64,000 nucleotides of DNA from Candidatus Caldarchaeum sp. GTDB taxonomy: Archaea; Thermoproteota; Nitrososphaeria_A; Caldarchaeales; Caldarchaeaceae. Both the position numbers and the translations under genes were made by a program. The stretch covers positions 10,194 through 74,193 of the forward strand of contig JAWBRA010000005.1 of NCBI GenBank assembly GCA_038844785.1, given 5' to 3'. This document shows, piece by piece, positions 2,159 to 43,798 of the stretch (positions are counted from its first letter, which is position 1; every line of letters begins with the position of its first letter). The notes under the pieces were generated by a model that saw only the letters and a list, made by a program, of their open reading frames with translations, had not been told where the DNA came from and did not search any database.

Positions 2159-3535
2159 ATGGTAAAGGACGAGGTTATTCCATATCTTGGACACCACACC
2201 CCGAAAGATATTGCGGAAATGCTTTCGGCGATAGGTGTCAGCGACCCCTTACAACTCTATTCAGACATTCCTTCAAAATACATTTTACAGAAGCCTCCGG
2301 ACATCGGGCCTCCTCTCTCAGAGCAGGAGGTCGTTGAGAGGATTAGAAAGATTCTGGAGGAAAACCGTCGTGGCCTGCGGCTTTTCGTCGGGGGAGGCGT
2401 TTGGCCCCATTACATTCCTGCAGCTGTCAAAGAAATTGTCTCGAGGACGGAGTTTTTGACGAGCTACACGCCATACCAGCCAGAGGCATCACAGGGCATG
2501 TTAACCGCTCTCTTCGAATTTCAAAGCCTGGCTGCAGAGCTTTACGGAGTGGACGTAGTCAACTCCTCGATGTACGATTGGGCGACGGCTTTGGGAGAAG
2601 CTTTCCGAATGGCTTACAAGTATACCGGGAAAAGAAAGGTTATAGCAGCTGGTTTCTGCAGCCCAGACCGTTTGAAAGTCGCACAGACATACATTAAGCC
2701 CTTAGGGATGGAGGTTGTGAAAGCACCGATGGACCGTAAGGCGATGATTGACGAAGAGTTCCTCAAATCAAACATAGACGGCGACACCGCTGCAGTCTAC
2801 GTGGAAAACCCATGCTTTCTTGGCGCGGTTGTACGCAACGTGAAAGCAGCTGCAGAGATATCCCACGACTCAGGAGCGCTTTACATCGTGGGAGCTGAGC
2901 CCACATCACTAGGCCTATTGACGCCACCCGGCTCATACGGAGCAGACATCGTGGTAGGGGAGGGCCAGCCTCTGGGTCTGCCCATGAGCTTCGGAGGCCC
3001 CTTGCTAGGTATTTTGGGATGCGTTTTCGACAGAAAGCTTCTCCACACGATGCCCGGCCGGCTTGTTGGGATGACCGAAACTTTGAAGGACAGGAAGCGG
3101 GCTTTCACCATGGTGCTGAGGGCTAGAGAGCAGGACATAAAAAGGGAGAAAGCTACGTCAAACATATGCACCAACCAAGCTTTGTGTGCCGTCGCAGCAG
3201 CGGCATACCTTTCGCTTCTCGGGAAAAACGGACTTAAACGTCTCGCCAGACACATATTCGACAAGACAGCCTACTTTATAGACCGGCTGTCCACCGTTGA
3301 AAACCTTAAAACACCTTTGTTAGAAGCGCCTCATTACATGGAGTTCAGCTACAGCGTCTCAAACATCGACCACGGGCTTATACTGAAGAAGCTTTTAGAG
3401 AAAAACATCGTCGGCGGGTTAAGACTGTTCGACATGTTTCCTAGCATAGGAGACGGCGTACTAACGTGTGTTACCGAGATCCACAGCAAAAAAGATATCG
3501 ACGAATACGTAAGCTATGTAAGGGAGGCGGTTTGA
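2159..3535 (+). CDS. gcvPA: Glycine dehydrogenase (decarboxylating) subunit 1
   Basis: TSYTPYQPEASQG, NSSMYD and REQDIKREKATSNICTNQAL motifs. Confidence 0.96.
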   Translation: MVKDEVIPYLGHHTPKDIAEMLSAIGVSDPLQLYSDIPSKYILQKPPDIGPPLSEQEVVERIRKILEENRRGLRLFVGGGVWPHYIPAAVKEIVSRTEFLTSYTPYQPEASQGMLTALFEFQSLAAELYGVDVVNSSMYDWATALGEAFRMAYKYTGKRKVIAAGFCSPDRLKVAQTYIKPLGMEVVKAPMDRKAMIDEEFLKSNIDGDTAAVYVENPCFLGAVVRNVKAAAEISHDSGALYIVGAEPTSLGLLTPPGSYGADIVVGEGQPLGLPMSFGGPLLGILGCVFDRKLLHTMPGRLVGMTETLKDRKRAFTMVLRAREQDIKREKATSNICTNQALCAVAAAAYLSLLGKNGLKRLARHIFDKTAYFIDRLSTVENLKTPLLEAPHYMEFSYSVSNIDHGLILKKLLEKNIVGGLRLFDMFPSIGDGVLTCVTEIHSKKDIDEYVSYVREAV

Positions 3536-5052
3536 TGTTTAGACAGGCTTCATGGGATGAAAAGCTAGTTTACGAGATTTCCAAGCATGGCGTTCAAGGG
3601 TTCAGCCCTCCACACACAGAGGACGAAATCCAGCAGGCGGGCAACAAGATGATTGAAAACCTGCCGAAAGAGCTGTTGAGAGAAGACCTCCCGCTGCCTG
3701 AGCTCTCGGAGCCGCAGGTTGTGAGACACTTCACCAGGCTCAGCCAGATGAACTTCAGCATCTCAACATCATTCTACCCTTTGGGTAGCTGCACGATGAA
3801 GTACAACCCAGCCGTAAACAACCAATTAGCATGGTTAGAGGAGGTTGTGAACGCGCATCCGCTGCAGCCTCCGGAAACCGTTCAGGGATGTTTAGAGCTG
3901 CTTTACAACCTTGAAGCCGCTCTCAAGGAGATTACGGGTATGGATGCTTTCTGCCTAGCTCCTGCCGCAGGCGCCCACGGAGAACTTGTCGGCTGCCTCA
4001 TAATGAGAGCCTACCACATGGATAGGGAGGGGAGGCCGAGGAAGAAGATAATAGTGCCTGATTCGGCGCATGGGACGAACCCTGCAAGCGCAGGCATGGC
4101 CGGTTTCGAAGTTGAGGTTGTAAAAACAAGGAGCGATGGATGTCTAGATCTCGACACCTTCGAAAAGATGGTTGACGGCGATGTCGCGGGGATAATGCTT
4201 ACAAACCCCAACACATTAGGCCTTTTTGAAAAAGACATCGAAACCATTGTGAAGATAATGCATTCAAACGACTCGCTTCTCTACTATGACGGGGCAAACC
4301 TTAACGCGATAATGGGAGTGGTCAGGCCTGGAGACATGGGGTTTGACATCATACATCTAAACCTCCATAAAACGTTCTCAACCCCCCACGGCGGCGGGGG
4401 ACCGGGAGCCGGGCCAGTGGGCGTTGTGGCCAAACTCTCCAAATATTTACCGCCTCCACGGATAGTCAGGAATAGAAACGGCGCGTTCGAGCTTGTTGCC
4501 GACGTGGAGAACGGGGTTGGTCCTGTCAAAATGTTTTACGGAAATTTCGGCGTACTTGTCAGAGCATACGCCTACATACTGTCGATGGGGGGTGAGGGTT
4601 TGAGGAGGGCGGCAGTTACCTCGGTAATCGCCTCAAACTACATGCTGTCAAAGATATCCAAGCTGCGTGGGGTCAGCATACCATACGACCCTGCAAGACC
4701 CCGAAAACACGAGTTTGTCATAAGCTTGTCAAGACTCAGGAAGGAAACAGGCCTAGGAGCTTTAGAAGTTGCCAAACGTCTTCTAGACTACGGCTTCCAC
4801 GCGCCAACAATATACTTCCCCCTCATCGTTGAAGAGGCTTTCATGGTTGAGCCCACTGAGACCGAGGCTAAGGAAACGCTCGACAGCTACGTCGAGGCTT
4901 TTGCGAAAGTCATCGAAGAATGCTACAGCAGCCCGGAAGTTGTCAGGACAGCACCCCACAACACGTCTGTTGGAAGAGTGAATGAAGCGAAAGCTTCACA
5001 TCCGTTATCCCTAACGCCGACTTGGAAAACGCTGCGGAGGAGGCGAGAGTGA
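3535..5052 (+). CDS. gcvPB: Glycine dehydrogenase (decarboxylating) subunit 2
   Basis: YPLGSCTMKYNP and HLNLHKTFSTPHGGGGPG PLP-lysine motif; ATG at 3535 overlaps the gcvPA TGA. Confidence 0.96.
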   Translation: MFRQASWDEKLVYEISKHGVQGFSPPHTEDEIQQAGNKMIENLPKELLREDLPLPELSEPQVVRHFTRLSQMNFSISTSFYPLGSCTMKYNPAVNNQLAWLEEVVNAHPLQPPETVQGCLELLYNLEAALKEITGMDAFCLAPAAGAHGELVGCLIMRAYHMDREGRPRKKIIVPDSAHGTNPASAGMAGFEVEVVKTRSDGCLDLDTFEKMVDGDVAGIMLTNPNTLGLFEKDIETIVKIMHSNDSLLYYDGANLNAIMGVVRPGDMGFDIIHLNLHKTFSTPHGGGGPGAGPVGVVAKLSKYLPPPRIVRNRNGAFELVADVENGVGPVKMFYGNFGVLVRAYAYILSMGGEGLRRAAVTSVIASNYMLSKISKLRGVSIPYDPARPRKHEFVISLSRLRKETGLGALEVAKRLLDYGFHAPTIYFPLIVEEAFMVEPTETEAKETLDSYVEAFAKVIEECYSSPEVVRTAPHNTSVGRVNEAKASHPLSLTPTWKTLRRRRE

Positions 5053-6140
5053 AAGAGATACCGCTTCTAAAACACCACCTGTCGTCTCCTAAAGTTGAAG
5101 CGGGAGAGTTCGCCGGATGGAAGACCATCATATCTTTCACGACGGTTAGGGAAGAGCATAGAGCTGTTAGGGAAAAAGCCGGTATCTTCGACATAAGTCA
5201 CATGACACGTGTCAAGTTGTCTGGACCGGGTGCGACATCATTACTTCAGAAGGTCGTGACAGCAGACGTTGATAAGCTCAAACCCGGGAGAATGAAGTAC
5301 GCTTTAATCCTGAACGAACAGGCTGGAATAATCGACGACGTCACAGTCTTCAAGGTTTCGGAGAACAGCTATGTGATGGTCTCAAACGCAGTCACAAGGA
5401 CTAGGGTCTTGGAATGGCTTAGTGAAAACGCTGGAGAAAACGTACATGTCGAGGACTTCACCGACTCCTCTGCGTTTTTCGCAGTCCAGGGCCCTAAAGC
5501 TGTTGAATTTGTCTCCAAGTTTTTCGGTAAAGATTTCACCCCGTTTAAATGGTTCAGCGGCGAGTTTGCAACGGTCGACGGCTGCCAGATTCTCGTGACG
5601 CGAAGCGGCTACACAGGCGGCGACGGGTTTGAGCTAATCATACCGTGCGGCGGCCCATCCTTCTACGGAAGGGTCTGGGACAGGTTTGTTGAGGAAGGGG
5701 TTCAGCCGTGCGGCCTTGCATGCAGAGATATCTGCAGGATCGAAGCAGGATATCTCCTCTCTGGACAGGACTTCGACGAGTCTAAGTCGCCTCTAGAGAC
5801 GAAGCTTATGTGGGCAGTCAACTTAGAAAAGCCCGGGTTCATAGGCAAGCAAGCCCTCGAGAATAAGCTGATAGCCAAGCTGGAAAAAGTGGTTACGCTT
5901 CTTGAGATGGTTGAGCCCGGTGTTCCAAGACATGGATACCCGTTGGTGGATGAAAGCGGGAGAAAAGTTGGCGAAGTAACCAGCGGCGGGGTCATACCTT
6001 CGACGGGTAAGGCGGCGGCGATAGGATACGTCGTGCCAGAGCTCTCCCAAGAAGGGTGTGAGGTTTTCGTAGACATAAGAGGGAAGATTAGAAAGGCTAG
6101 GGTGAGAACAAGGCCATTCATAACGTTTACAAAACCTTAG
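5049..6140 (+). CDS. gcvT: Glycine cleavage system aminomethyltransferase T
   Basis: IFDISHM, TRSGYTGGDGFE and RIEAGY motifs; GTG at 5049 overlaps the gcvPB stop. Confidence 0.95.
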   Translation: MKEIPLLKHHLSSPKVEAGEFAGWKTIISFTTVREEHRAVREKAGIFDISHMTRVKLSGPGATSLLQKVVTADVDKLKPGRMKYALILNEQAGIIDDVTVFKVSENSYVMVSNAVTRTRVLEWLSENAGENVHVEDFTDSSAFFAVQGPKAVEFVSKFFGKDFTPFKWFSGEFATVDGCQILVTRSGYTGGDGFELIIPCGGPSFYGRVWDRFVEEGVQPCGLACRDICRIEAGYLLSGQDFDESKSPLETKLMWAVNLEKPGFIGKQALENKLIAKLEKVVTLLEMVEPGVPRHGYPLVDESGRKVGEVTSGGVIPSTGKAAAIGYVVPELSQEGCEVFVDIRGKIRKARVRTRPFITFTKP

Positions 6141-8426: not shown

Positions 8427-9659
8427 ATGCTGATAATCTGCCTCGTGAAGGGTGTTCCCGCCAGAACCACTCAAGTGGTAACAGTCTCGGGCGTGCTTAA
8501 GCGGGAGGAGATGGACCTTGTTCTAAACCCGCATGACGTAAAAGCAATTGAAGCCGCGTACTATGTCAAGAGGATGGTGGGTGGAAAAATCGTCGGCATA
8601 AGCATGGGTCCCGAGCCTAAGATAATGCCCATTATGAACGACTTGGCTGAGCCTAAGGAGGAGAGTTTTTACGTTCCAAGGATTTCGTTCGAAGGTTTTG
8701 ACGAAAGAATCATTCTCAGCGACAGGCGGATGGCTGGGGCTGATACATGGGCCACGTCATACACGCTGGCATGCGGGATAAGCCGTTACATCCAAAACCA
8801 TGTTGAAGCGGTTGACAAGCTTATAGAGGCTGTGAAAAACTCTAGCCCGGAAGAGGCTGCATCATTGGCGGAGAAGCTTTACATGGAAAACTTGTTGCCC
8901 AACTACATCTACTCAAAGCTACCGACTGTCAGGGCTACCTTGGTTGAAAGGTTCTTAAAAGGCGAGGTTGGCAAGGAGGCGGTTATCTCCGAGCTTCAAA
9001 AACACAGACAGAACATCACCAACTTCATAATTCTTACAGGCATGAAGACCAGCGACGGGGAAACAGGCAACACAGGTCCTCAGACAGCTGAAGCGTTGAG
9101 CGGCATGATGGGTAGGCTGATACCCAGCATAGCTTTCGTCAGAGAGTTTGAGATATCACCCGACGCCACCACCATCGTAGCCGTCAGAAAAATCGGCAAG
9201 ACTCTCCAAAAACTGCGTGTTTCGCCTCCATGCCTTCTTACGATAGACAGCCATTACGAGCCGAAAGTTCCTTACGCCTCTCTTCAAAGGAAAGTGAGGG
9301 CAAACAACTACATGGGCAAAATGAGAAAAACCCTTGTCTGGAACGCTGACCATATAGGAGCGGACCCAAACAAAATCGGCTTCATGGGCTCGCCAACCAT
9401 CGTCGGACCCGGATACGAAATAGGGAAACCGCCTTCTCAAAAGTTTGTAGGCGAAACGCTTGTCTTTAAACAGAACGTCGGCAAAATAGAATGGAATGGG
9501 AAAGCTTACGGGCCTTTCAACAAAGGTGACATGGCATCAAACCTTCCCGAAGATCTTTTGAGAAAGCTTAGAGAGGACGGTGTTATTGACTTCTTCAGCC
9601 TTGAAGACTTGGTTGAAGAAATTTTCGGAGGGATCAAGGTTGTCCACAGAGCTGTATAA
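8427..9659 (+). CDS. fixA: Electron transfer flavoprotein beta subunit (FixA-like), enlarged
   Basis: LNPHDVKAIEAA, SMGP, SDRRMAGADTWATS and GMKTSDGETGNTGP ETF-beta motifs. Confidence 0.9.
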   Translation: MLIICLVKGVPARTTQVVTVSGVLKREEMDLVLNPHDVKAIEAAYYVKRMVGGKIVGISMGPEPKIMPIMNDLAEPKEESFYVPRISFEGFDERIILSDRRMAGADTWATSYTLACGISRYIQNHVEAVDKLIEAVKNSSPEEAASLAEKLYMENLLPNYIYSKLPTVRATLVERFLKGEVGKEAVISELQKHRQNITNFIILTGMKTSDGETGNTGPQTAEALSGMMGRLIPSIAFVREFEISPDATTIVAVRKIGKTLQKLRVSPPCLLTIDSHYEPKVPYASLQRKVRANNYMGKMRKTLVWNADHIGADPNKIGFMGSPTIVGPGYEIGKPPSQKFVGETLVFKQNVGKIEWNGKAYGPFNKGDMASNLPEDLLRKLREDGVIDFFSLEDLVEEIFGGIKVVHRAV

Positions 9660-10728
9660 AGACGTATGGGCTTACTGTGTAAAAGAAGGAAACCATCTTA
9701 CAAGGCCAAGCCTCGAGATACTTGCCGCAGCCCGTAAGGTCGCTGACAAGATAGGACAACAAGTTGCCGCCGTCATCATAGGCCATAACTTAGACGGTGT
9801 CCTGGATGAGGCGATAGCGTTCGGAGCTGATAAAGTATTGTACGCCGATGAACCCTGGCTTAAAAACTATCTCTGCCTTCCGTACACGCGTGTGTTGTGC
9901 GAGATGGCTGAGAAGATGAAGCCTTACGCGATTCTTTTCGTAGCGGATGAGCTGGGTAGAGATCTTTCACCGCGCGTGGCTTACAGGCTTAACACCGGCC
10001 TTGCGACAGACAACATAAACCTCGAAGTCGAGGACTATTATTTCGGCCCCACCAACACGACTTACAAAAACGTCCTAGCCCAGATAAGGCCTGACTTCGC
10101 TACGAGAGTAGCTAAAATATTCACGCCGAGACATAGGCCCCAGATAGCCAGCATAAGGCCTGGAAACTTCGAACCACTGCCCGAAGACCGTAGGAGGGTT
10201 GGTGAAAAAATCAGGTTTTACCCGACGCCTGTTCCAGAAGATTTCTCCGTCGAGGTCATTGAAGAGAGAGAGCTTCCTAAGCCCAGTGTCAACCTTGAGG
10301 AGGCCAAGGTTGTGGTCAGCATTGGGTTGGGAATACTTAAGGACGGTAGCGGAAACCCACGCAACCCACGGGAGGGTTTCATGCTGGCTAAGAAGCTTGT
10401 GGACTTGGTCAGGGAGAAGTTTGGTGTCCCGAGCGAGCTTGGAGCCACACGGGCGCTCATATACTCAGAGCTTAAAGAGCTTGAAGGCCTTGTTACGTCT
10501 GAAAGACAGGTTGGACAGACAGGTAAGACCGTGTCACCCGACGTCTACATAGCTGCAGGCATAAGCGGCTCAGTCCAGCACAGAGTCGGAATGATCAAGT
10601 CGAAGAAAATAGTGGCTATAAACAACGACCCTAAAGCACCAATCTTCGAGATAGCCCACTATGGGGTGAAAGCAGACCTTTACGAGGCCCTGCCTAAAAT
10701 CCTTGAAATCATCGAGAGGAGGTACTAA
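9640..10728 (+). CDS. fixB: Electron transfer flavoprotein alpha subunit (FixB-like)
   Basis: RQVGQTGKTVSPDVYIAAGISGSVQHRVGM and AINNDPKAPIF FAD-binding motifs; TTG start at 9640. Confidence 0.92.
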   Translation: MSTELYKDVWAYCVKEGNHLTRPSLEILAAARKVADKIGQQVAAVIIGHNLDGVLDEAIAFGADKVLYADEPWLKNYLCLPYTRVLCEMAEKMKPYAILFVADELGRDLSPRVAYRLNTGLATDNINLEVEDYYFGPTNTTYKNVLAQIRPDFATRVAKIFTPRHRPQIASIRPGNFEPLPEDRRRVGEKIRFYPTPVPEDFSVEVIEERELPKPSVNLEEAKVVVSIGLGILKDGSGNPRNPREGFMLAKKLVDLVREKFGVPSELGATRALIYSELKELEGLVTSERQVGQTGKTVSPDVYIAAGISGSVQHRVGMIKSKKIVAINNDPKAPIFEIAHYGVKADLYEALPKILEIIERRY

Positions 10729-12425
10729 TGGCTGAGAAGTTTGATGCCGTGGTGGTGGGCGCCGGACCGGCTGGTTCCGCAGCCGCTTTGACGCTGGCCC
10801 GGAACGGATACGACGTCTTGATGCTTGAAAAGACACAGCTGCCTGGACAGAGGAACGTGTCGGGAGGCGTTTTGTTCGGCGGATTCACTGATGGGCTGGG
10901 GCTTATAGACCTACTCCCCGAGTTTGAAGAGGAGGCGCCTCTCGAGAGGAAGATCTCGGGCCACGAGCTTTATCTGCTAAGCCAGCACGTAAGGAAAAAC
11001 GGGGACTGGGAGTACAGGTTCGTCAAGTTCGATAAGAGGTCTTTATTGACAAAGGTTGGTTTAACCATGCTCAACGCATCAAGCGGACATGACTACACAG
11101 TCCTGAGGGCGCGTTTTGACAGGTGGATGGCTTCGAAAGCGGTTGAGGAAGGCGCTATGCTCGCCACGTCAAAAACGGTTGAAAACCTCATATTCAAAGA
11201 CGGCAGGGTGGTGGGTGTTGTTACCCAGGATGAGGAGATATATGCTGACATGGTGATAGACTGCGGGGGGGTGACCTCACTTCTCCCCGAGAAGGCTGGA
11301 ATAAGACCTAGGCTTACTCCAGCTCAAGTCTACCATGGTGTAAAACAGGTTTTGAAGCTGTCGCCTCAGAAAATTGAAGAATTTTTCAAGCTTGACGACG
11401 GTTTCAAAACACTCTATCTGCTGGGGCCCTTTATGCACGGCATCGTCGGAGGCGGTTTCATATATCCCAACAAAGACACGCTATCTGTAGGTATAGTGGT
11501 TGGGCTTTCTTCTGCGCTACCCGTGTTCACAAGACGTTTCAACGAGTTGGGCAAACCCTTTGAGATTCTCGAGGAGATGATGTCTCATCCGTTCGTCAGC
11601 CAAATATTACAGGAGGCAAAACCGGTCGAGTACTCGGCTCACAACATTCCAAAAGGCTACAAGGTCCTTCCCGACAAACCTTATGCTCCCGGCTTCCTAC
11701 TGGCCGGCGACGCGTTAGGTGTTTTCTACAAGATTGGAGCCCTTATCGACGGAATCAGACCGGCTATAGCCTCCGGAATTTTAGCCGCGCGAACTTTCAT
11801 CCACGCAAAGAACCAAGGCGACTTCAGCGCTTCGACCCTCTCGATTTACAGAAAGCTTCTAGAACCGTTGTACAGGCTTGTCTCAAAGTCGAGGACAAAC
11901 AGCGCCCTGATTGAGCGTAAGATTTTCTATTCAACAAGCTGCGAGGCCATGTTTAAGCTTGGCTTGGGCAGAAAAGCGGTCGCAAAGATAGCAAACGTTG
12001 GAAACAACGGCAAGGACATGATGCAGACTATACAGCAGATGACCGGGCTTCTCGACTATCAGGAAGACAAGCTTAGGTCGCACATAGAGGTAAACCAAGC
12101 TATGGCATCTTCTGACAGGGAGAAAGCATGGATACCCATGTGCCCCGTCAACTGCTATACCCTGGTGACGGGTAAAGGTGTTTTCGCATCTTTCAAAGAC
12201 CTTTACCGATACAACCTAGAGAGCCTGAAGAAGAATGGTTTGGATGAAAGGACGGCGGCTAGAAAGGCCTTGGAGACAACGTTGGAAGACATTAGGTTGG
12301 GGCAGCTGAAGTTCGACCACGTGGCTTGTGTGGCATGCGGGACGTGCGGCGTGATCGGACCGCCGTCCATGGTTAGGTTTGGCCATGAATGGAATGGGTA
12401 CGGTGTTAAGTTTAAATATGGTTAA
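10728..12425 (+). CDS. fixC: FixC flavoprotein (ETF:quinone oxidoreductase type) fused to a FixX ferredoxin-like domain
   Basis: GAGPAG Rossmann motif, NVSGG, LRARFDRW, LAGDA; C-terminal CPVNCY...CVACGTC...GYGVKFKYG typical of FixX. Confidence 0.88.
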   Translation: MAEKFDAVVVGAGPAGSAAALTLARNGYDVLMLEKTQLPGQRNVSGGVLFGGFTDGLGLIDLLPEFEEEAPLERKISGHELYLLSQHVRKNGDWEYRFVKFDKRSLLTKVGLTMLNASSGHDYTVLRARFDRWMASKAVEEGAMLATSKTVENLIFKDGRVVGVVTQDEEIYADMVIDCGGVTSLLPEKAGIRPRLTPAQVYHGVKQVLKLSPQKIEEFFKLDDGFKTLYLLGPFMHGIVGGGFIYPNKDTLSVGIVVGLSSALPVFTRRFNELGKPFEILEEMMSHPFVSQILQEAKPVEYSAHNIPKGYKVLPDKPYAPGFLLAGDALGVFYKIGALIDGIRPAIASGILAARTFIHAKNQGDFSASTLSIYRKLLEPLYRLVSKSRTNSALIERKIFYSTSCEAMFKLGLGRKAVAKIANVGNNGKDMMQTIQQMTGLLDYQEDKLRSHIEVNQAMASSDREKAWIPMCPVNCYTLVTGKGVFASFKDLYRYNLESLKKNGLDERTAARKALETTLEDIRLGQLKFDHVACVACGTCGVIGPPSMVRFGHEWNGYGVKFKYG

Positions 12426-12488: not shown

Positions 12489-13340
12489 ATGACCTACGCA
12501 AACCCCAGCGTTCTAGCGGAAGTTGAATGGCTGAAACAAAACCTGGCAGACCCCAGCATAAAAGTCGTGGAGGTTGACTACGACCCGAAGCTGGCTTACG
12601 AACAAGGCCATATACCCGGAGCCTTGCTGATCGACTGGAGGAAAGACATGAACAAGCAGGACGTCCGTGACATAATAGACGCCCGCGAGTTTGAAAACCT
12701 CATGTCACGTTTAGGCATCTCAAACGACACCCACGTAATACTCTACGGCGACTACAACAACTGGTTTGCGACTTTCGCCTTCTGGGTCTTCGAAATGTAC
12801 AACCATAAGAAAGTCCAGCTCCTCAACGGCGGAAGGAAAAAATGGATCGATTCCGGCGGAGAGCTCACAAAAGAAGTGCCAAAGCCAAAGCCAGCGGTAT
12901 ACCGTGTCGAGAAAATCAACCTTGAACAGCGGGTTTTCCTTGATGAGCTTTTGAAGGAGAAAATAGCGGATCCGAACTTGGTTTTAGTCGACGTTAGGTC
13001 ACCTGCGGAGTTTACCGGCGAGATCACGGCTCCTCCGGAATATCCTAACGAGCATGCGCAAAGGGGCGGCCATATCCCAGGTGCGGTAAACATTCCTTGG
13101 GGGCAGGCGGTACGTGAAGACGGCACTTTCAAACCTGCTGAAGAGCTTAGGCAGCTCTACAGCTCAAAAGGAGTTACTCCGGATAAAAACGTAGTCACTT
13201 ACTGCAGAATCGGCGAGAGAGCTAGCGTAACATGGTTTGTGTTGAAACATTTGGTTGGATACCAGCGTGTCCGAGTTTACGACGGCAGCTGGACAGAGTG
13301 GGGTAACCTCGTTAGGTTTCCGATAGAGAGGCAGCGTTGA
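12489..13340 (+). CDS. Two-domain rhodanese (thiosulfate sulfurtransferase)
   Basis: GHIPGA twice, active site YCRIGER, C-terminal VYDGSWTEW signature. Confidence 0.95.
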   Translation: MTYANPSVLAEVEWLKQNLADPSIKVVEVDYDPKLAYEQGHIPGALLIDWRKDMNKQDVRDIIDAREFENLMSRLGISNDTHVILYGDYNNWFATFAFWVFEMYNHKKVQLLNGGRKKWIDSGGELTKEVPKPKPAVYRVEKINLEQRVFLDELLKEKIADPNLVLVDVRSPAEFTGEITAPPEYPNEHAQRGGHIPGAVNIPWGQAVREDGTFKPAEELRQLYSSKGVTPDKNVVTYCRIGERASVTWFVLKHLVGYQRVRVYDGSWTEWGNLVRFPIERQR

Positions 13341-13996
13341 AGTCTGCGGATGGATGTTTCTTACCGGAGGACAGGGGCTACGTCGTTGAACACGACCTAT
13401 GGTTCAAGAACGTTGCGGAGAACAGGTATTTGGTGGGAGCGTGCCAACCATTTCTTTTCATGGCAGGCAGGCCTAAAAAAGTAAACGTAAGAGGTAAAGG
13501 AACCTTAGTCAGACGGAACACAGCCATTGCCCTTGTTGTTTCGTCAAAGATGGAGGGCGCTTTGCTGTCGCCTGTTGACTTAGAAATACTGCATGTTAAC
13601 GATTTTGTGTTGCAAAACCCCGAGGTTTTAGCTGACGACCCTTATGAAAAAGGATGGCTAGCTGAAATAATCTGCCACTCAACCCCTGCATTAACAGGTG
13701 CGGAAACAGCCTCCGTGTTATATGAGCAGTTGAACAGCCGGCGTGGGGTTGTCTGCTTCGACATAGTCCCACATTACCAGATGACTGTGTTTGGGGAAAG
13801 CTGTGAGAGTATTTTGACTAAGATAGGTAATTTCATGAGTCAACACGTGGGTGTAGGCGAGACGCTTTACGTTGTGACGCAGGACCCGGCTACAGAGGTG
13901 GACATGATTAACTGGGCTGAGAAAACAGGTCAGCATCTCCTAGGCATGAAAAGGTTTGGAAAAACCATTCACGTAATGTACAAGCGCATGGTTTAA
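13337..13996 (+). CDS. Lipoyl-carrier (GcvH/LbpA-like) domain fused to a C-terminal TusA/SirA-like domain
   Basis: HDLW, VVSSK (candidate lipoyl Lys) and DPYEKGW H-protein motifs; C-terminal GESC...GETLYVVTQDPATEVDMINWAEKTGQ matches the TusA pattern; 4-bp overlap with the rhodanese. Confidence 0.75.
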   Translation: MKSADGCFLPEDRGYVVEHDLWFKNVAENRYLVGACQPFLFMAGRPKKVNVRGKGTLVRRNTAIALVVSSKMEGALLSPVDLEILHVNDFVLQNPEVLADDPYEKGWLAEIICHSTPALTGAETASVLYEQLNSRRGVVCFDIVPHYQMTVFGESCESILTKIGNFMSQHVGVGETLYVVTQDPATEVDMINWAEKTGQHLLGMKRFGKTIHVMYKRMV

Positions 13997-14532
13997 GCTC
14001 GCCACCATTCAAACATCACATACGTCACCTTATCTTCAGCGGGAACCGCTACTGTAAAATATTTTTTCACCGAGGTAGCGAGCCTTCCGGACCGTATTAT
14101 CTCCAGAGCTGAAATCTTTCCATTCTGTTCCTTAACCTGTATGATGAATGGGGCGTGGTCGATGCCTGGTCCATGCCGGTAGACTGCGAAATCGCTGCCA
14201 AACTTTATCCCGGGGAGAACTATGAAACCCCTATTCCTCAAATCGCTGTAAACTGTGTATTTTTTCAACAGATTCTCGTCCTGGGCTATGGCATGTTTTT
14301 CCAGCTCTTCCGCCGTTAGTTCCTTGCCTGAGCTGAACACTTTCAGAAGGCCGTTTCTATGAAGGTACAGTGCTTCCAGCAAGTCCAAAACGAGGGGTGC
14401 GTCGAAGTTCATGTCCCTTGGCTTGGGTATGCCCAAGGGTTTTCCGAAAAAACCTTTCCTGTAAAGATCTCTGGCCTCTTCCACGTCCCATACTATTACG
14501 CTGTCCTTTAACAGCTCTCCCCGTGCCAACAA
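13993..14532 (-). CDS. endA: tRNA-splicing endonuclease catalytic subunit
   Basis: GIKFGSDFAVYRHGPGIDHAPF with catalytic Y/H/K; GFFGKPLGIPKP loop. Confidence 0.93.
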   Translation of the reverse strand: MLARGELLKDSVIVWDVEEARDLYRKGFFGKPLGIPKPRDMNFDAPLVLDLLEALYLHRNGLLKVFSSGKELTAEELEKHAIAQDENLLKKYTVYSDLRNRGFIVLPGIKFGSDFAVYRHGPGIDHAPFIIQVKEQNGKISALEIIRSGRLATSVKKYFTVAVPAEDKVTYVMFEWWRA

Positions 14533-41451: not shown

Positions 41452-42441
41452 ATGGCCGAGCAGGAGACTGAAGTAGACAATGCAAGGCTTCTGACTTTTT
41501 TCAGAAAAATGGTTGAGATAAGGCTTTTCGAAGAAAGGGTTGAAAAGCTTTATCGCGAAGGCAAGATAGCCGGTCCAACACATCTCTACGTAGGCCAGGA
41601 GGCGGTTGCGGTGGGTGTGATCGAAGCTCTCGACAAAGACGACGTAATAATCTCAACCTACAGGGGGCATGGACACGGCTTGGCCAGAGGCGTTCCCATG
41701 CGGGCTGTGTTGGGCGAAATAATGGGAAAGTCTATTGGAACATGCAAAGGCCTTGGAGGCTCTATGCATGCTCCAATAAGCGTTGAGAGAAAGATACTGT
41801 TTGCCACAGCGATAGTTGGCAGCGGTCTTCCAATAGCTGTCGGCGTGGCACTAGGCTTCAAACAACGTGGCGAAAAGAATTTGGCAGCAGTGTTTTTCGG
41901 CGACGGAGCTGTCAACACAGGAGCCTTCCACGAAGCATTGAATTTAGCGGCTGTCTGGAGGCTACCGGTCCTATTCGTCTGCGAAAACAACCTTTACGCA
42001 ATGAGCACAGCCCTTTCCAGAGCCTTCGCAGGAGAAAGCATAGCCGCTCGAAGCTCGAGCTATGGTATCAAAACCTTCACAGTCATGGGCAACGACGTCG
42101 TCGAAGTATACACCACAGCATGTTCAGCAGCTTCATACATACGGGAAGGACGGGGTCCTGCTTTCATCGAATGCAGAACATACCGTCAGAAGGGACACGG
42201 CGGATACGACTTGGGAACATGGTATAGACCGAGAGAGGAGATTGAAGAATGGTTGATGAAAGACCCTATAGAGATGTTGTTCAACCGTTTGAAGGCTGAC
42301 GGGTTGCTTGACGAACAGAAAAGAAAGGCGTTGGAAGAGGAGGTTAACAAGATGATTGACGGCGTCGTTGAAGAAGTGCTCAAAGCCCCCTTAACTGATT
42401 TCAGGGTTTTGGAAGAGTTTGTCTACTCATCGAAAACGTGA
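41452..42441 (+). CDS. TPP-dependent 2-oxoacid/acetoin dehydrogenase E1 alpha
   Basis: HLYVGQEA, GGSMH, FFGDGA...ENN TPP motif, TYRQKGH. Confidence 0.93.
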   Translation: MAEQETEVDNARLLTFFRKMVEIRLFEERVEKLYREGKIAGPTHLYVGQEAVAVGVIEALDKDDVIISTYRGHGHGLARGVPMRAVLGEIMGKSIGTCKGLGGSMHAPISVERKILFATAIVGSGLPIAVGVALGFKQRGEKNLAAVFFGDGAVNTGAFHEALNLAAVWRLPVLFVCENNLYAMSTALSRAFAGESIAARSSSYGIKTFTVMGNDVVEVYTTACSAASYIREGRGPAFIECRTYRQKGHGGYDLGTWYRPREEIEEWLMKDPIEMLFNRLKADGLLDEQKRKALEEEVNKMIDGVVEEVLKAPLTDFRVLEEFVYSSKT

Positions 42442-42447
42442 AAGGCC

Positions 42448-43446
42448 ATGGGTGTTAGGGAGATCACATACGTGGAAGCCTTGAACGAAGCTTTGAAGGA
42501 GGAGATGCGTCGAGACAGTTCTGTGATAGTTTTCGGCGAAGAAGTAGCTTTAGCCGGAGGCGTCTACAAGGTAACTAAAGACCTTCTGAAAGAATTCGGC
42601 CCTACAAGGGTTATGGACACGCCTATATCGGAAATAGCCATAATAGGTGCTGCGATAGGGGCTGCGTTGAATGGCTTAAGGCCTGTCGCTGAGCTTATGT
42701 TTTTCGACTTCGCCGGCATAGCCTTTGACCAGATAGTGACGCATGCTTCCAAGATTCGTTTCACATCAGGAGGGCAGGTCAAGCTGCCTCTAGTCATCCG
42801 CACCCAGTACAGCCTTGGACGTTCATACGGTAGTCAGCACACGCAGTTTCTGACGGCTTCCTTCATGCAGGCGCCTGGGCTGAAAATAGTTCTTCCATCA
42901 ACACCCTATGACGCAAAAGGCCTCCTCAAGTCTGCAATCCGTGATGACGACCCGGTTCTTTTCATAGAATCTGGGGCACTCTACGTCAACAGGAGCTACT
43001 ATGGATATAAAGGACCGGTCCCCGAGGAAGAATATCTGCTCCCGATAGGTAAAGCCGACGTCAAGGCTGAGGGGGATGATGTGACTGTTGTCGCTCTGTC
43101 GCGAACGGTGTCTGAGGCCATGGCCGCCGCCGGTCAGCTGAAAGAAGAGGGGTTGAGGGCCGAGGTAGTGGACCTGAGGACGGTTCAGCCGATGGATTAC
43201 GAGACTGTCTTAAGGTCTGTAAGGAAGACGAACCGCTTAATCATAGCGGAGGACAGTGTAAAAACTTGCGGCGTGTCGGCGGAGGTAGCCGCATATGTTG
43301 CAGAAAACGCCTTAGACGCCCTTGAAGCCCCTGTGATAAGGCTTAACTCCCCACCCATGCCGGCACCACAATCACAGCCTCTCGAAAGACAGTACATGGT
43401 TACTGCTGACAAGATAGTTGAGTCCGTCAGAAAACTTTGTCTCTAG
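42448..43446 (+). CDS. TPP-dependent 2-oxoacid/acetoin dehydrogenase E1 beta
   Basis: FGEEV, DTPISE, LRPVAE, PSTPYDAKGLL and DLRT motifs. Confidence 0.93.
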   Translation: MGVREITYVEALNEALKEEMRRDSSVIVFGEEVALAGGVYKVTKDLLKEFGPTRVMDTPISEIAIIGAAIGAALNGLRPVAELMFFDFAGIAFDQIVTHASKIRFTSGGQVKLPLVIRTQYSLGRSYGSQHTQFLTASFMQAPGLKIVLPSTPYDAKGLLKSAIRDDDPVLFIESGALYVNRSYYGYKGPVPEEEYLLPIGKADVKAEGDDVTVVALSRTVSEAMAAAGQLKEEGLRAEVVDLRTVQPMDYETVLRSVRKTNRLIIAEDSVKTCGVSAEVAAYVAENALDALEAPVIRLNSPPMPAPQSQPLERQYMVTADKIVESVRKLCL

Positions 43447-43688
43447 ATTTTCTGGATCTCCGCTATTACCTCCCCCACACTGACCTCGTCCCCAACCTTG
43501 TGAAGTATCCTGACTATTTTGCCGTCCACCTCTGAAGGGATTTCGACAGCGGCTTTCTCCGTCTCAACGATAACTACGACCTCGCCCTTTTTTACTTGGT
43601 CGCCCTCCTTCTTCAGCCATTCAGCTATCTTGCCCGACTCCATCGCAACATCTATCCTAGGCAGTATGAGCTTATACAGCTCGGGCAT
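43443..43688 (-). CDS. Stand-alone lipoyl domain protein
   Basis: WLKKEGDQVKKGE...VETEKAAVEIPS lipoylation motif; 81 aa with no catalytic E2 core. Confidence 0.9.
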   Translation of the reverse strand: MPELYKLILPRIDVAMESGKIAEWLKKEGDQVKKGEVVVIVETEKAAVEIPSEVDGKIVRILHKVGDEVSVGEVIAEIQKI

Positions 43689-43798
43689 GATCCTCTTAGG
43701 GTGTTTAAATAAGGCAGTTTATAAATTCGTATTACTTATTTAGGCTTAACCGCGTCAGAGTCTTATACCTAGCTGCCATGCTAGCTGTGGTGGTGTTG

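Follow-up and report, generated by a model that had tools for sequence, protein, structure and literature searches.

An LbpA-like/TusA-like fusion protein with three conserved cysteines and its companion rhodanese: a candidate sulfur carrier module of archaea

Gene organization at the locus

We analyzed a stretch of 64,000 nucleotides (nt) of Candidatus Caldarchaeum sp. (assembly GCA_038844785.1, contig JAWBRA010000005.1, positions 10,194 to 74,193 of the forward strand), called the window below. All coordinates are positions in this window; the source genome, coded G000, was assembled into 57 contigs and is 95.5% complete. Two neighboring genes on the plus strand are the subject of this study. 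The first encodes a two-domain rhodanese of 283 amino acids (aa; 12489..13340, +), the second a protein of 219 aa (13337..13996, +) in which an LbpA-like domain is fused to a TusA-like domain. Three cysteines of the fusion protein are kept by nearly all of its relatives, the residue at the lipoylation position varies between lysine and arginine, and a rhodanese gene accompanies the fusion gene in different archaeal phyla. We regard the two genes as a candidate module for persulfide transfer that would work independently of lipoate.

The open reading frame (ORF) of the fusion starts with TTG, the sole start codon within the open frame, and ends with TAA. The first two residues (MK) are consistent with how the homologues begin. 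A Shine-Dalgarno-like box (GAGAGG) is located 7-12 nt upstream of the start, which overlaps the TGA stop codon of the rhodanese gene in the sequence TTGA (13337..13340, +), a signature of translational coupling. The ORF and the six motifs on which the initial annotation of this DNA was based were found in the translation, with codon positions checked: DGCFLPED (residues 5-12), EHDLW (18-22), VVSSKMEG (67-74), DPYEKGW (101-107), GVVCF (137-141) and GESC (153-156). At its other end, the fusion gene shares 3-4 nt (window 13993-13996) with the convergent gene endA (13993-14532, -) through their overlapping stop codons, so that there is no intergenic terminator space between both genes.

Domain structure of the fusion protein

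The GcvH/LbpA-fold domain comprises residues 1-141 (13337..13759, +) and is assigned from Pfam, Foldseek and the phylogenetic tree described below. Pfam GCV_H matches residues 15-116 with an E-value of 6.1e-14 and 52.4 bits (cut-off 22.2), and the NCBIfam GcvH models gave 39.6-49.8 bits, far under their cut-offs of 115.85-117. The TusA-fold domain covers residues 142-219 (13760..13993, +), includes the motif DPATEVDxxxW and is assigned from Foldseek, Pfam TusA and an alignment with TusA proteins of the same genome. In the window copy, the match to Pfam TusA is weak and covers residues 171-212 (E-value 4e-4, 20.6 bits, cut-off 28.6), while 29.0 bits were obtained for a relative from the same order.

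A structure model of the fusion protein was calculated with AlphaFold2 (AF2) from 12 sequences and has a mean predicted local distance difference test score (pLDDT) of 93.9 and a predicted template modeling score (pTM) of 0.86. In Foldseek searches against the PDB, the N-terminal domain matched the glycine cleavage H protein GcvH (1onl_A) with a target template modeling score (TM) of 0.89 and a root-mean-square deviation (rmsd) of 1.6 Å over 128 columns. The C-terminal domain matched E. coli TusA (3lvj_C) with a target TM of 0.83 and an rmsd of 1.7 Å over 73 columns (E-value 1.4e-4); further matches were YhhP (1dcj), YeeD (8j4c), Ta1414 (1pav) and 3hz7. Since the structure matches the TusA fold, the weak Pfam call is confirmed. 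Pfam, the AF2 model and Foldseek agree that one polypeptide chain joins a GcvH/LbpA-fold domain to a TusA-fold domain, as it had been proposed in the initial annotation, for which a C-terminal 80 aa without similarity to the TusA fold would have been fatal.

The functional positions of both domains can be aligned with known proteins. Lys71 is aligned with the lipoyl-lysine of the H proteins of E. coli and Thermus thermophilus (VSSK vs. ESVK). Cys156 is placed at the N-terminus of helix 156-170 in the AF2 model and is aligned with the cysteine of the CPxP motif in three TusA proteins whose genes lie elsewhere in the same genome, and DPATEVDxxxW of the fusion is aligned with DPAxxxDxxxW of these proteins. 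The proposed TusA-like cysteine is therefore found at the TusA catalytic position by Foldseek as well as by the own-genome alignment.

Conservation of the cysteines and of the lysine position

Conservation was analyzed in 140 sequences aligned to the family profile, namely the window copy, 29 sequences from the same order, 80 from other archaeal loci and 30 cluster representatives; some of these rows are duplicates of each other. Cys156 (13802..13804, +), the position of the TusA persulfide cysteine, is a cysteine in all 140 sequences. Cys140 (13754..13756, +), the C-terminal LbpA-type cysteine at the domain boundary, is kept in 139 of 140, and the N-terminal LbpA-type cysteine Cys7 (13355..13357, +) in 136 of the 137 rows with a residue there. 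The single member without Cys140 (P0035) is also the one without Cys7, and it retains a canonical CPGP TusA motif. A few family members carry CPGP or CPET; a proline follows the cysteine in only 5/140 sequences. The CPxP motif is mostly replaced by C-[S/A/E]-x-x-L, and the window copy has CESI.

Residue 71 shows a different pattern. It is located in the former lipoyl hairpin, residues 66-77 (13532..13567, +), with the Lys71 codon at 13547-13549. The column contains 84 arginines, 49 lysines, six other residues and one gap (n = 140); within the order it is lysine in ten, arginine in 19 and asparagine in one of 30 sequences. In a FastTree phylogeny of 133 labelled rows, calculated without this column, at least 24 changes between lysine and arginine are needed. 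This free exchange means that there is no conserved lipoate attachment site at residue 71. The surrounding hairpin is kept, with glutamate at position -3 in 122/140 sequences and tyrosine (51), histidine (41) or phenylalanine (25) at position +1 (117/140). As judged from the alignment, the hairpin itself is under constraint despite the variable residue 71. Glutamate at position -3 matters for lipoylation of the H protein; the window copy has valine at this position. Conservation of lysine and cysteines among homologues, as the initial annotation had expected, applies to the cysteines and fails for the lysine.

Relationship to H proteins and LbpA

Cys7 and Cys140 flank the lipoyl-type domain. 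Such a cysteine pair was described as the hallmark of LbpA proteins in the accessible text of Cao et al. (2018; PMC6067878). For Thioalkalivibrio LbpA2, the pair consists of Cys7 and Cys145, it lies within disulfide distance in AlphaFold models, and the sLpl(AB) ligase can recognize the protein without this pair, whose role is left open in the consulted part of the preprint by Kumpel et al. (2026; 10.64898/2026.10.01.755906). As far as these two sources were available, they agree with the earlier assignment of the flanking cysteines as an LbpA rather than a GcvH signature. The fusion shares with LbpA the H-protein fold, a GCxxPED cysteine near the N-terminus, a second cysteine where the domain ends, which nearly coincides in position with that of LbpA2 (Cys140 vs. 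Cys145), and the hairpin motif ES-x-K/R-aromatic. It is 35% identical to the LbpA of its own genome over residues 5-140.

A tree of the N-terminal domain was calculated from 131 rows and 145 columns, in which the stand-alone proteins were the top matches of the fusion profile and are thus subject to selection bias. The fusions fall into a single group, which also contains three probable fragments and has a support of 87 in the Shimodaira-Hasegawa-like approximate likelihood ratio test (SH-aLRT). This group adjoins LbpA-like proteins with two cysteines. Canonical GcvH proteins, including that of the sister genome, form a separate clade (SH-aLRT 96), so that the phylogeny suggested for distinguishing LbpA from GcvH places the fusion on the LbpA side.

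The alternative that the fusion is the glycine cleavage H protein of this organism gains some appeal from the genes gcvPA, gcvPB and gcvT in the same window (2159-6140, +) and from the lack of a canonical gcvH in the 95.5% complete assembly, which was searched with PF01597 and with GcvH of the sister genome. However, the closest relative (G009), whose fusion protein is 90% identical, has a separate canonical GcvH of 140 aa. Synteny with the gcvH locus of the sister genome breaks off some 125 nt from the end of contig C55; the missing gene is therefore uninformative and may lie in an assembly gap. The fusion also differs from GcvH by its VSSK motif, by arginine instead of lysine in most orthologues, by the isoelectric point of the domain (5.9 vs. 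4.6 for GcvH of the sister genome), by its position outside the GcvH clade and by the NCBIfam scores. We consider a role as H protein extremely improbable. The N-terminal domain is LbpA-like and not a glycine cleavage H protein, and at the same time it lacks two defining features of LbpA, the conserved lysine and the context of sHdr genes.

With regard to this context, the genome contains a separate sulfur island on contig C6 (locus L119, 1-16500). It encodes a flavoprotein similar to SQR/FCSD, a YeeE-type transporter, a TauE sulfite exporter, a molybdopterin oxidoreductase with a fused 4Fe-4S/NrfD subunit, DsrE, TusA (with CPMP), an LplA-type ligase, an LbpA of 143 aa, a second DsrE, HdrC/HdrB/HdrA/HdrC-like proteins and an ArsR regulator. 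Full-length orthologues of this LbpA with at least 73% identity were found in 4/76 species genomes of the order (G000, G006, G017 and G025). The LbpA of G006 is identical to that of G000, yet G006 has neither the fusion nor the rhodanese. The complete identity and the presence in four genomes suggest that the island is mobile or was shared recently, or that one contig was placed in more than one bin. Membership of the fusion in the sHdr system was rejected, as the sHdr island has its own LbpA and its own TusA.

These observations bear on the interpretation of the initial annotation, a persulfide-to-lipoyl shuttle. In this explanation the fusion would be a lipoylated LbpA-type protein whose TusA domain transfers sulfur from its persulfide to a (dihydro)lipoyl group attached to Lys71, for sHdr oxidation or for lipoate assembly. 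It would fit with Lys71 at the lipoyl position, the LbpA-type cysteine pair and the presence of LplA-type ligase, TusA and DsrE genes in the sHdr island of the genome. Dihydrolipoate can accept sulfur from rhodanese, and the complex model described below would put the would-be lipoate hairpin on the rhodanese. In contrast, residue 71 is arginine in 84/140 sequences and in 19/30 within the order, with at least 24 switches, whereas the lysine is strictly conserved in the published LbpA proteins as reported in the available part of PMC6067878. The window copy deviates further by valine in place of glutamate at position -3. LbpA orthologues are found in 4/76 and the fusion in 32/76 genomes, and neither lipoate ligase nor lipoyl synthase genes were seen beside the fusion in any locus examined. 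The lipoyl-dependent form of the shuttle is not supported: the lysine is not conserved (K in 49/140), the gene does not travel with sHdr, LbpA or lipoate ligase genes, and its companion is a rhodanese. We rate the lipoylated form as quite unlikely.

Distribution of the fusion family

A word-indexed search gave only 11 relatives, all labelled Candidatus Caldarchaeum and of the same length. When 1.84 billion cluster representatives were searched with a profile, about 30 further full-length clusters of 215-249 aa were added, and a scan of species-representative genomes yielded 320 relatives. The best 80 of these 320 are all archaeal. They belong mainly to the Nitrososphaerota, including Nitrososphaera and Gagatemarchaeaceae, and further to Thermoplasmata, metagenome-assembled genomes (MAGs) labelled 'Methanobacteriota', Bathyarchaeia, Marsarchaeota and Thermoproteota. 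In the order of the window genome, the 32 species genomes with a full-length fusion are distributed over family f1 (17 genomes; G006 lacks a copy) and genera g6-g8 of family f2 (15 genomes).

The ESM Atlas contains eight clusters which pair GCV_H and TusA, and the three listed ones are 86-100% archaeal. The automatic names are of the type 'Glycine cleavage H-protein/Sulfurtransferase TusA domain-containing protein', so the architecture is already visible to automatic annotation. In the literature searched, which covered listings, the opening parts of abstracts and passages of PMC4075521, we found no description of a GcvH/LbpA-TusA fusion; the supplementary LbpA alignments of Cao et al. (2018), which lie outside the part available to us, might include archaeal fusion forms. 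Another fusion of the H-protein fold in the ESM Atlas combines a DGC domain (PF08859) with GCV_H in proteins of about 281 aa (148 members). Its record gives Bacteria 50% and Candidatus Thorarchaeota as the commonest phylum.

Linkage to a rhodanese gene

The partner gene directly upstream in the window encodes a protein with a strong match to Pfam Rhodanese over two stretches (E-value 4.5e-40). The score for the NCBIfam 3-MST model, 132.7 bits, is under the cut-off of 250, and the protein was therefore not placed in this equivalog. Its two rhodanese domains, with the catalytic cysteine in a six-residue loop of the C-terminal one, correspond to the thiosulfate/3-mercaptopyruvate sulfurtransferase type. 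The active-site cysteine, Cys239 (13203-13205), is part of the motif CRIGER, which fits the pattern CRXGX[R/T]. CRIGER is invariant in the rhodanese alignment and was found in 54 of 55 rhodaneses encoded next to a fusion, the exception being probably a fragment.

Within the order, the rhodanese gene lies directly upstream of the fusion gene and in the same direction in 25 of 30 loci. In the other archaea, a rhodanese homologue (phmmer E-value ≤ 1e-30) was identified in 66/80 loci, where it is usually located tail-to-tail 1-100 nt downstream of the fusion. The occurrence of the two genes in the 76 genomes of the order is also coupled: 32 have both, three only the rhodanese, none only the fusion, and 41 neither, counts which are descriptive and no statistical test, as the genomes are related. 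The genomes with the rhodanese only are G022 (66% complete), G044 and G046, where the gene is located at a contig end. G006 lacks both genes and belongs to the same genus as the window genome. That the two genes remain neighbors in different phyla, even where their order and orientation have changed, is the functional signal to which we give most weight.

Such a partnership is in line with known sulfur transfer. TusA accepts persulfide sulfur from rhodaneses, and TusA of Aquifex interacts with LbpA, according to the part of PMC11094781 that was available.

Two further ideas about the gene pair were rejected. A selenocysteine-containing rhodanese in genus g6 had seemed possible since six matches were flagged with '1 TGA'. 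In tblastn searches, two of the six (L132 and L133) and an unflagged copy from G027 (L134) are uninterrupted with CRIGER intact, and the TGA in the two flagged copies is the terminal stop codon. Replacement of a missing cysteine desulfurase by the module was discarded as well, since strong Aminotran_5 (SufS-like) matches are present in 73/76 genomes including G000.

Predicted complex of rhodanese and fusion protein

A complex of both proteins was predicted in three runs with interface scores (interaction prediction score from aligned errors, ipSAE) of 0.77, 0.76 and 0.77, compared to 0.07 for the best control. This mark was reached by 116/157 solved complexes and by 2/215 mismatched pairs, counts that hold only roughly here since the input consisted of own alignments with 31 rows for the rhodanese and 35 rows for the fusion. 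At least 96% of the contacts are common to the runs, and the partner pLDDT is at least 89. We know of no solved complex of a rhodanese with an H protein which the model could have memorized. At the level of the model, the prediction supports binding between rhodanese and fusion protein.

On the side of the fusion, the predicted interface comprises residues 42-43, 50, 52, 58-59, 61-63, 66, 68, 70-75, 77, 136, 147, 149, 166 and 169-170, which correspond to the former lipoyl hairpin, including residue 71, and neighboring strands. On the side of the rhodanese, it comprises residues 32, 34-36, 38-40, 88-89, 116-117, 120-121, 123-127, 179, 182-184 and 186, many of which are invariant or nearly so in the rhodanese alignment.

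A stable complex would also be compatible with the fusion acting as a thiol-disulfide partner or regulator of the rhodanese. The Cys7/Cys140 dithiol would then reduce or resolve the persulfide in a thioredoxin-like manner, and sulfide would be released. For such a role it can be brought forward that both cysteines were lost together in P0035 and are homologous to the LbpA pair modeled within disulfide distance in the consulted part of the LbpA2 preprint. The rhodanese is moreover conserved to a higher degree than the fusion (53-81% vs. 21-60% identity to the window copy), as fits an accessory subunit. However, the most conserved residue of the fusion is Cys156, and the TusA fold is kept, while a pure dithiol reductant needs neither of them. 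We regard this role as unlikely.

Gene neighborhood and transcription

Several genes around the fusion point to tRNA. The convergent downstream gene, which encodes the tRNA-splicing endonuclease EndA, is kept in family f1. Elp3, a radical-SAM/GNAT enzyme of tRNA wobble-uridine modification, is encoded upstream of the fusion and in the same direction in 26/80 archaeal loci, all of them labelled Nitrososphaerota or unlabelled. These loci are among L039-L078 (Nitrososphaerota MAGs; e.g., L060, 6352-8648). In most of them 5-45 nt separate the end of Elp3 from the start of the fusion gene, with the rhodanese gene converging on the fusion from the opposite direction. Other neighbors of the fusion elsewhere are TiaS, TrmO, Kae1/Bud32, Tyw1, Nop5/fibrillarin and GatE. 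The recurring tRNA-modification genes are suggestive of a link to tRNA, which is an indication and not a test.

Upstream of the rhodanese, the window contains genes for an EtfB-like protein (410 aa, with a split or extended ETF domain), EtfA (382 aa) and FixC fused to a FixX-like ferredoxin tail (565 aa; 8427..12425, +). The FixC-FixX protein has a weak match to the ubiquinone-binding domain of ETF-QO. A FixCX match upstream of the rhodanese was found in 13/30 loci of the order including that of the window, all from genera g1 and g2, and the 80 other archaeal loci, in which neighbors were clustered and typed with Pfam, gave no such match. EtfAB-FixCX were accordingly set aside as functional partners and are treated as local context.

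Transcripts of the gene pair may be represented in two RNA libraries. Metatranscriptome contigs from library X10 match the window without differences at 12503-13022, 13301-13519 and 13729-13880, the second of which bridges the junction of rhodanese and fusion. A contig from library X13 (13162-13378) also bridges the junction and comes from a relative with 95-99% identity. The bridging contigs are weak support for the module: DNA carry-over is possible, a contig with two genes is no proof of a single transcript, and parts without coverage, such as the FixCX region in X10 and sections of the fusion gene, are uninformative.

Elsewhere in the window, a lipoyl domain of about 80 aa (ETEKA) is encoded on its own at 43443-43718 (-), tail-to-tail with a stretch on the plus strand (41452-43446). 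This stretch contains two ORFs of about 330 aa each (41452-42441 and 42448-43446, +), which resemble 2-oxoacid dehydrogenase E1 by translation alone; no full E2 was seen there.

Proposed mechanism

In our estimate the chances are slightly better than even that the fusion is a lipoate-independent persulfide carrier with three cysteines, built from an LbpA-type and a TusA-fold domain and bound to its upstream rhodanese via the former lipoyl hairpin. The two folds, the three invariant cysteines, the variable lysine position and the adjacency and co-occurrence with the CRIGER rhodanese are observed, and the complex is predicted at the level of a controlled model; that sulfur is carried at all, the sequence of its transfers and its final recipient are inferred. 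The two-domain rhodanese would take up sulfane sulfur at Cys239 of CRIGER, for example from thiosulfate or a persulfide. The carrier would be held on the rhodanese by hairpin 66-77, in which the lysine or arginine at the tip would serve as a contact residue and not as a cofactor site. Sulfur could then pass to the TusA-type Cys156 as a persulfide, and further to the adjacent Cys140/Cys7 pair, where a persulfide or trisulfide might be held or be resolved by disulfide formation. Finally, a further acceptor would take over the sulfur, most plausibly tRNA, in thiouridine formation, or a cofactor in a thiolation reaction.

Several observations weigh against this mechanism. Cys239 and the three cysteines of the carrier are all outside the list of confident contacts, and the model therefore shows docking and not a transfer-competent geometry. 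In five loci, all from genus g6, fusion and rhodanese are unlinked, with the rhodanese intact elsewhere in those genomes. Among the 80 other archaeal loci, 14 are without a rhodanese, and seven of these have at least 1.2 kb of flanking sequence on both sides. The window fusion scores under the gathering cut-off of Pfam TusA and is without CPxP, and it does carry lysine at the lipoylation position in a genome which encodes an LplA-type ligase, so that this copy may be lipoylated. The link to tRNA is drawn from gene neighbors alone (Elp3 in 26/80; EndA, TiaS, TrmO, Kae1 and Tyw1).

A more specific form of the proposal is that the hairpin has turned into a docking element, and that the complex of carrier and rhodanese is a housekeeping sulfur module of aerobic and soil archaea which feeds tRNA wobble-uridine thiolation. 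This role would explain Elp3 and the other tRNA-modification genes in the neighborhood. We put it forward tentatively, as a possibility with more chances against it than for it.

Comparison with known sulfur transfer systems

The closest known proteins are the LbpA proteins. The fusion family differs from them by the unconserved lysine, by the attached TusA domain and by the lack of linkage or co-occurrence with sHdr, sLpl(AB) or LipS genes. It is archaeal and also present in lineages labelled as ammonia oxidizers (Nitrososphaera). The presence of the module in lineages without a sulfur-oxidation lifestyle means that it probably serves basic sulfur trafficking. The natural fusion, in which the TusA cysteine follows 16 residues after the C-terminal cysteine of the LbpA domain, gives independent genomic support for a direct hand-over from TusA to LbpA. 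If the reading with docking and thiolation is true, the cysteine pair of true LbpA proteins would be the site which receives sulfur from TusA in sHdr oxidation, and the fusion would be Rosetta-stone evidence for it. The pair of rhodanese and carrier is a widespread and uncharacterized archaeal module.

With the carriers of the TusA/YhhP/SirA family (PF01206) and with YeeD (TsuB), the C-terminal domain shares the two-layer alpha/beta fold, the cysteine at the N-terminus of helix 1 and the motif DPxxxxDxxxW. It differs from them by the mostly missing CPxP, by not being free-standing and, in the window copy, by a Pfam score under the cut-off. The protein is therefore an atypical TusA and no LbpA as defined in the literature; in its proposed function it resembles a TusA relay coupled to the LbpA cysteine pair.

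Rhd-TusA-DsrE2 modules likewise contain a rhodanese gene beside a gene for a TusA-type carrier, with an implied hand-over of persulfide, as described in the accessible part of PMC11094781. The rhodaneses of these modules are, in the same source, single-domain proteins with CRXGC[R/T], in contrast to the two-domain protein with CRIGER found here. A DsrE2 neighbor is absent here, and the carrier has an additional LbpA-like domain.

In eukaryotes, the two-domain rhodanese Tum1 feeds the Urm1 pathway. In E. coli, IscS and TusA feed the synthesis of 2-thiouridine, as stated in the part of PMC4075521 that was available. The locus resembles both systems in the combination of a two-domain rhodanese and a TusA-type carrier, which there act in early steps of wobble-uridine thiolation, and in the proximity of Elp3. 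It differs in that the synteny with Elp3 was seen only in loci that are labelled Nitrososphaerota or have no label, and may reflect a single lineage.

DsrC is a small carrier with two cysteines which are able to hold sulfur between them. Its fold is unrelated, its cysteines are located on a flexible C-terminal arm, and DsrAB is not involved in the system described here. As far as our searches reach, three features of the fusion family appear to be new: the loss of the lysine with the cysteines kept, the dedicated CRIGER rhodanese and the predicted re-use of the lipoyl hairpin as a docking surface. That the cysteines were kept while the lysine was given up argues for a lipoate-independent role of the LbpA cysteine pair.

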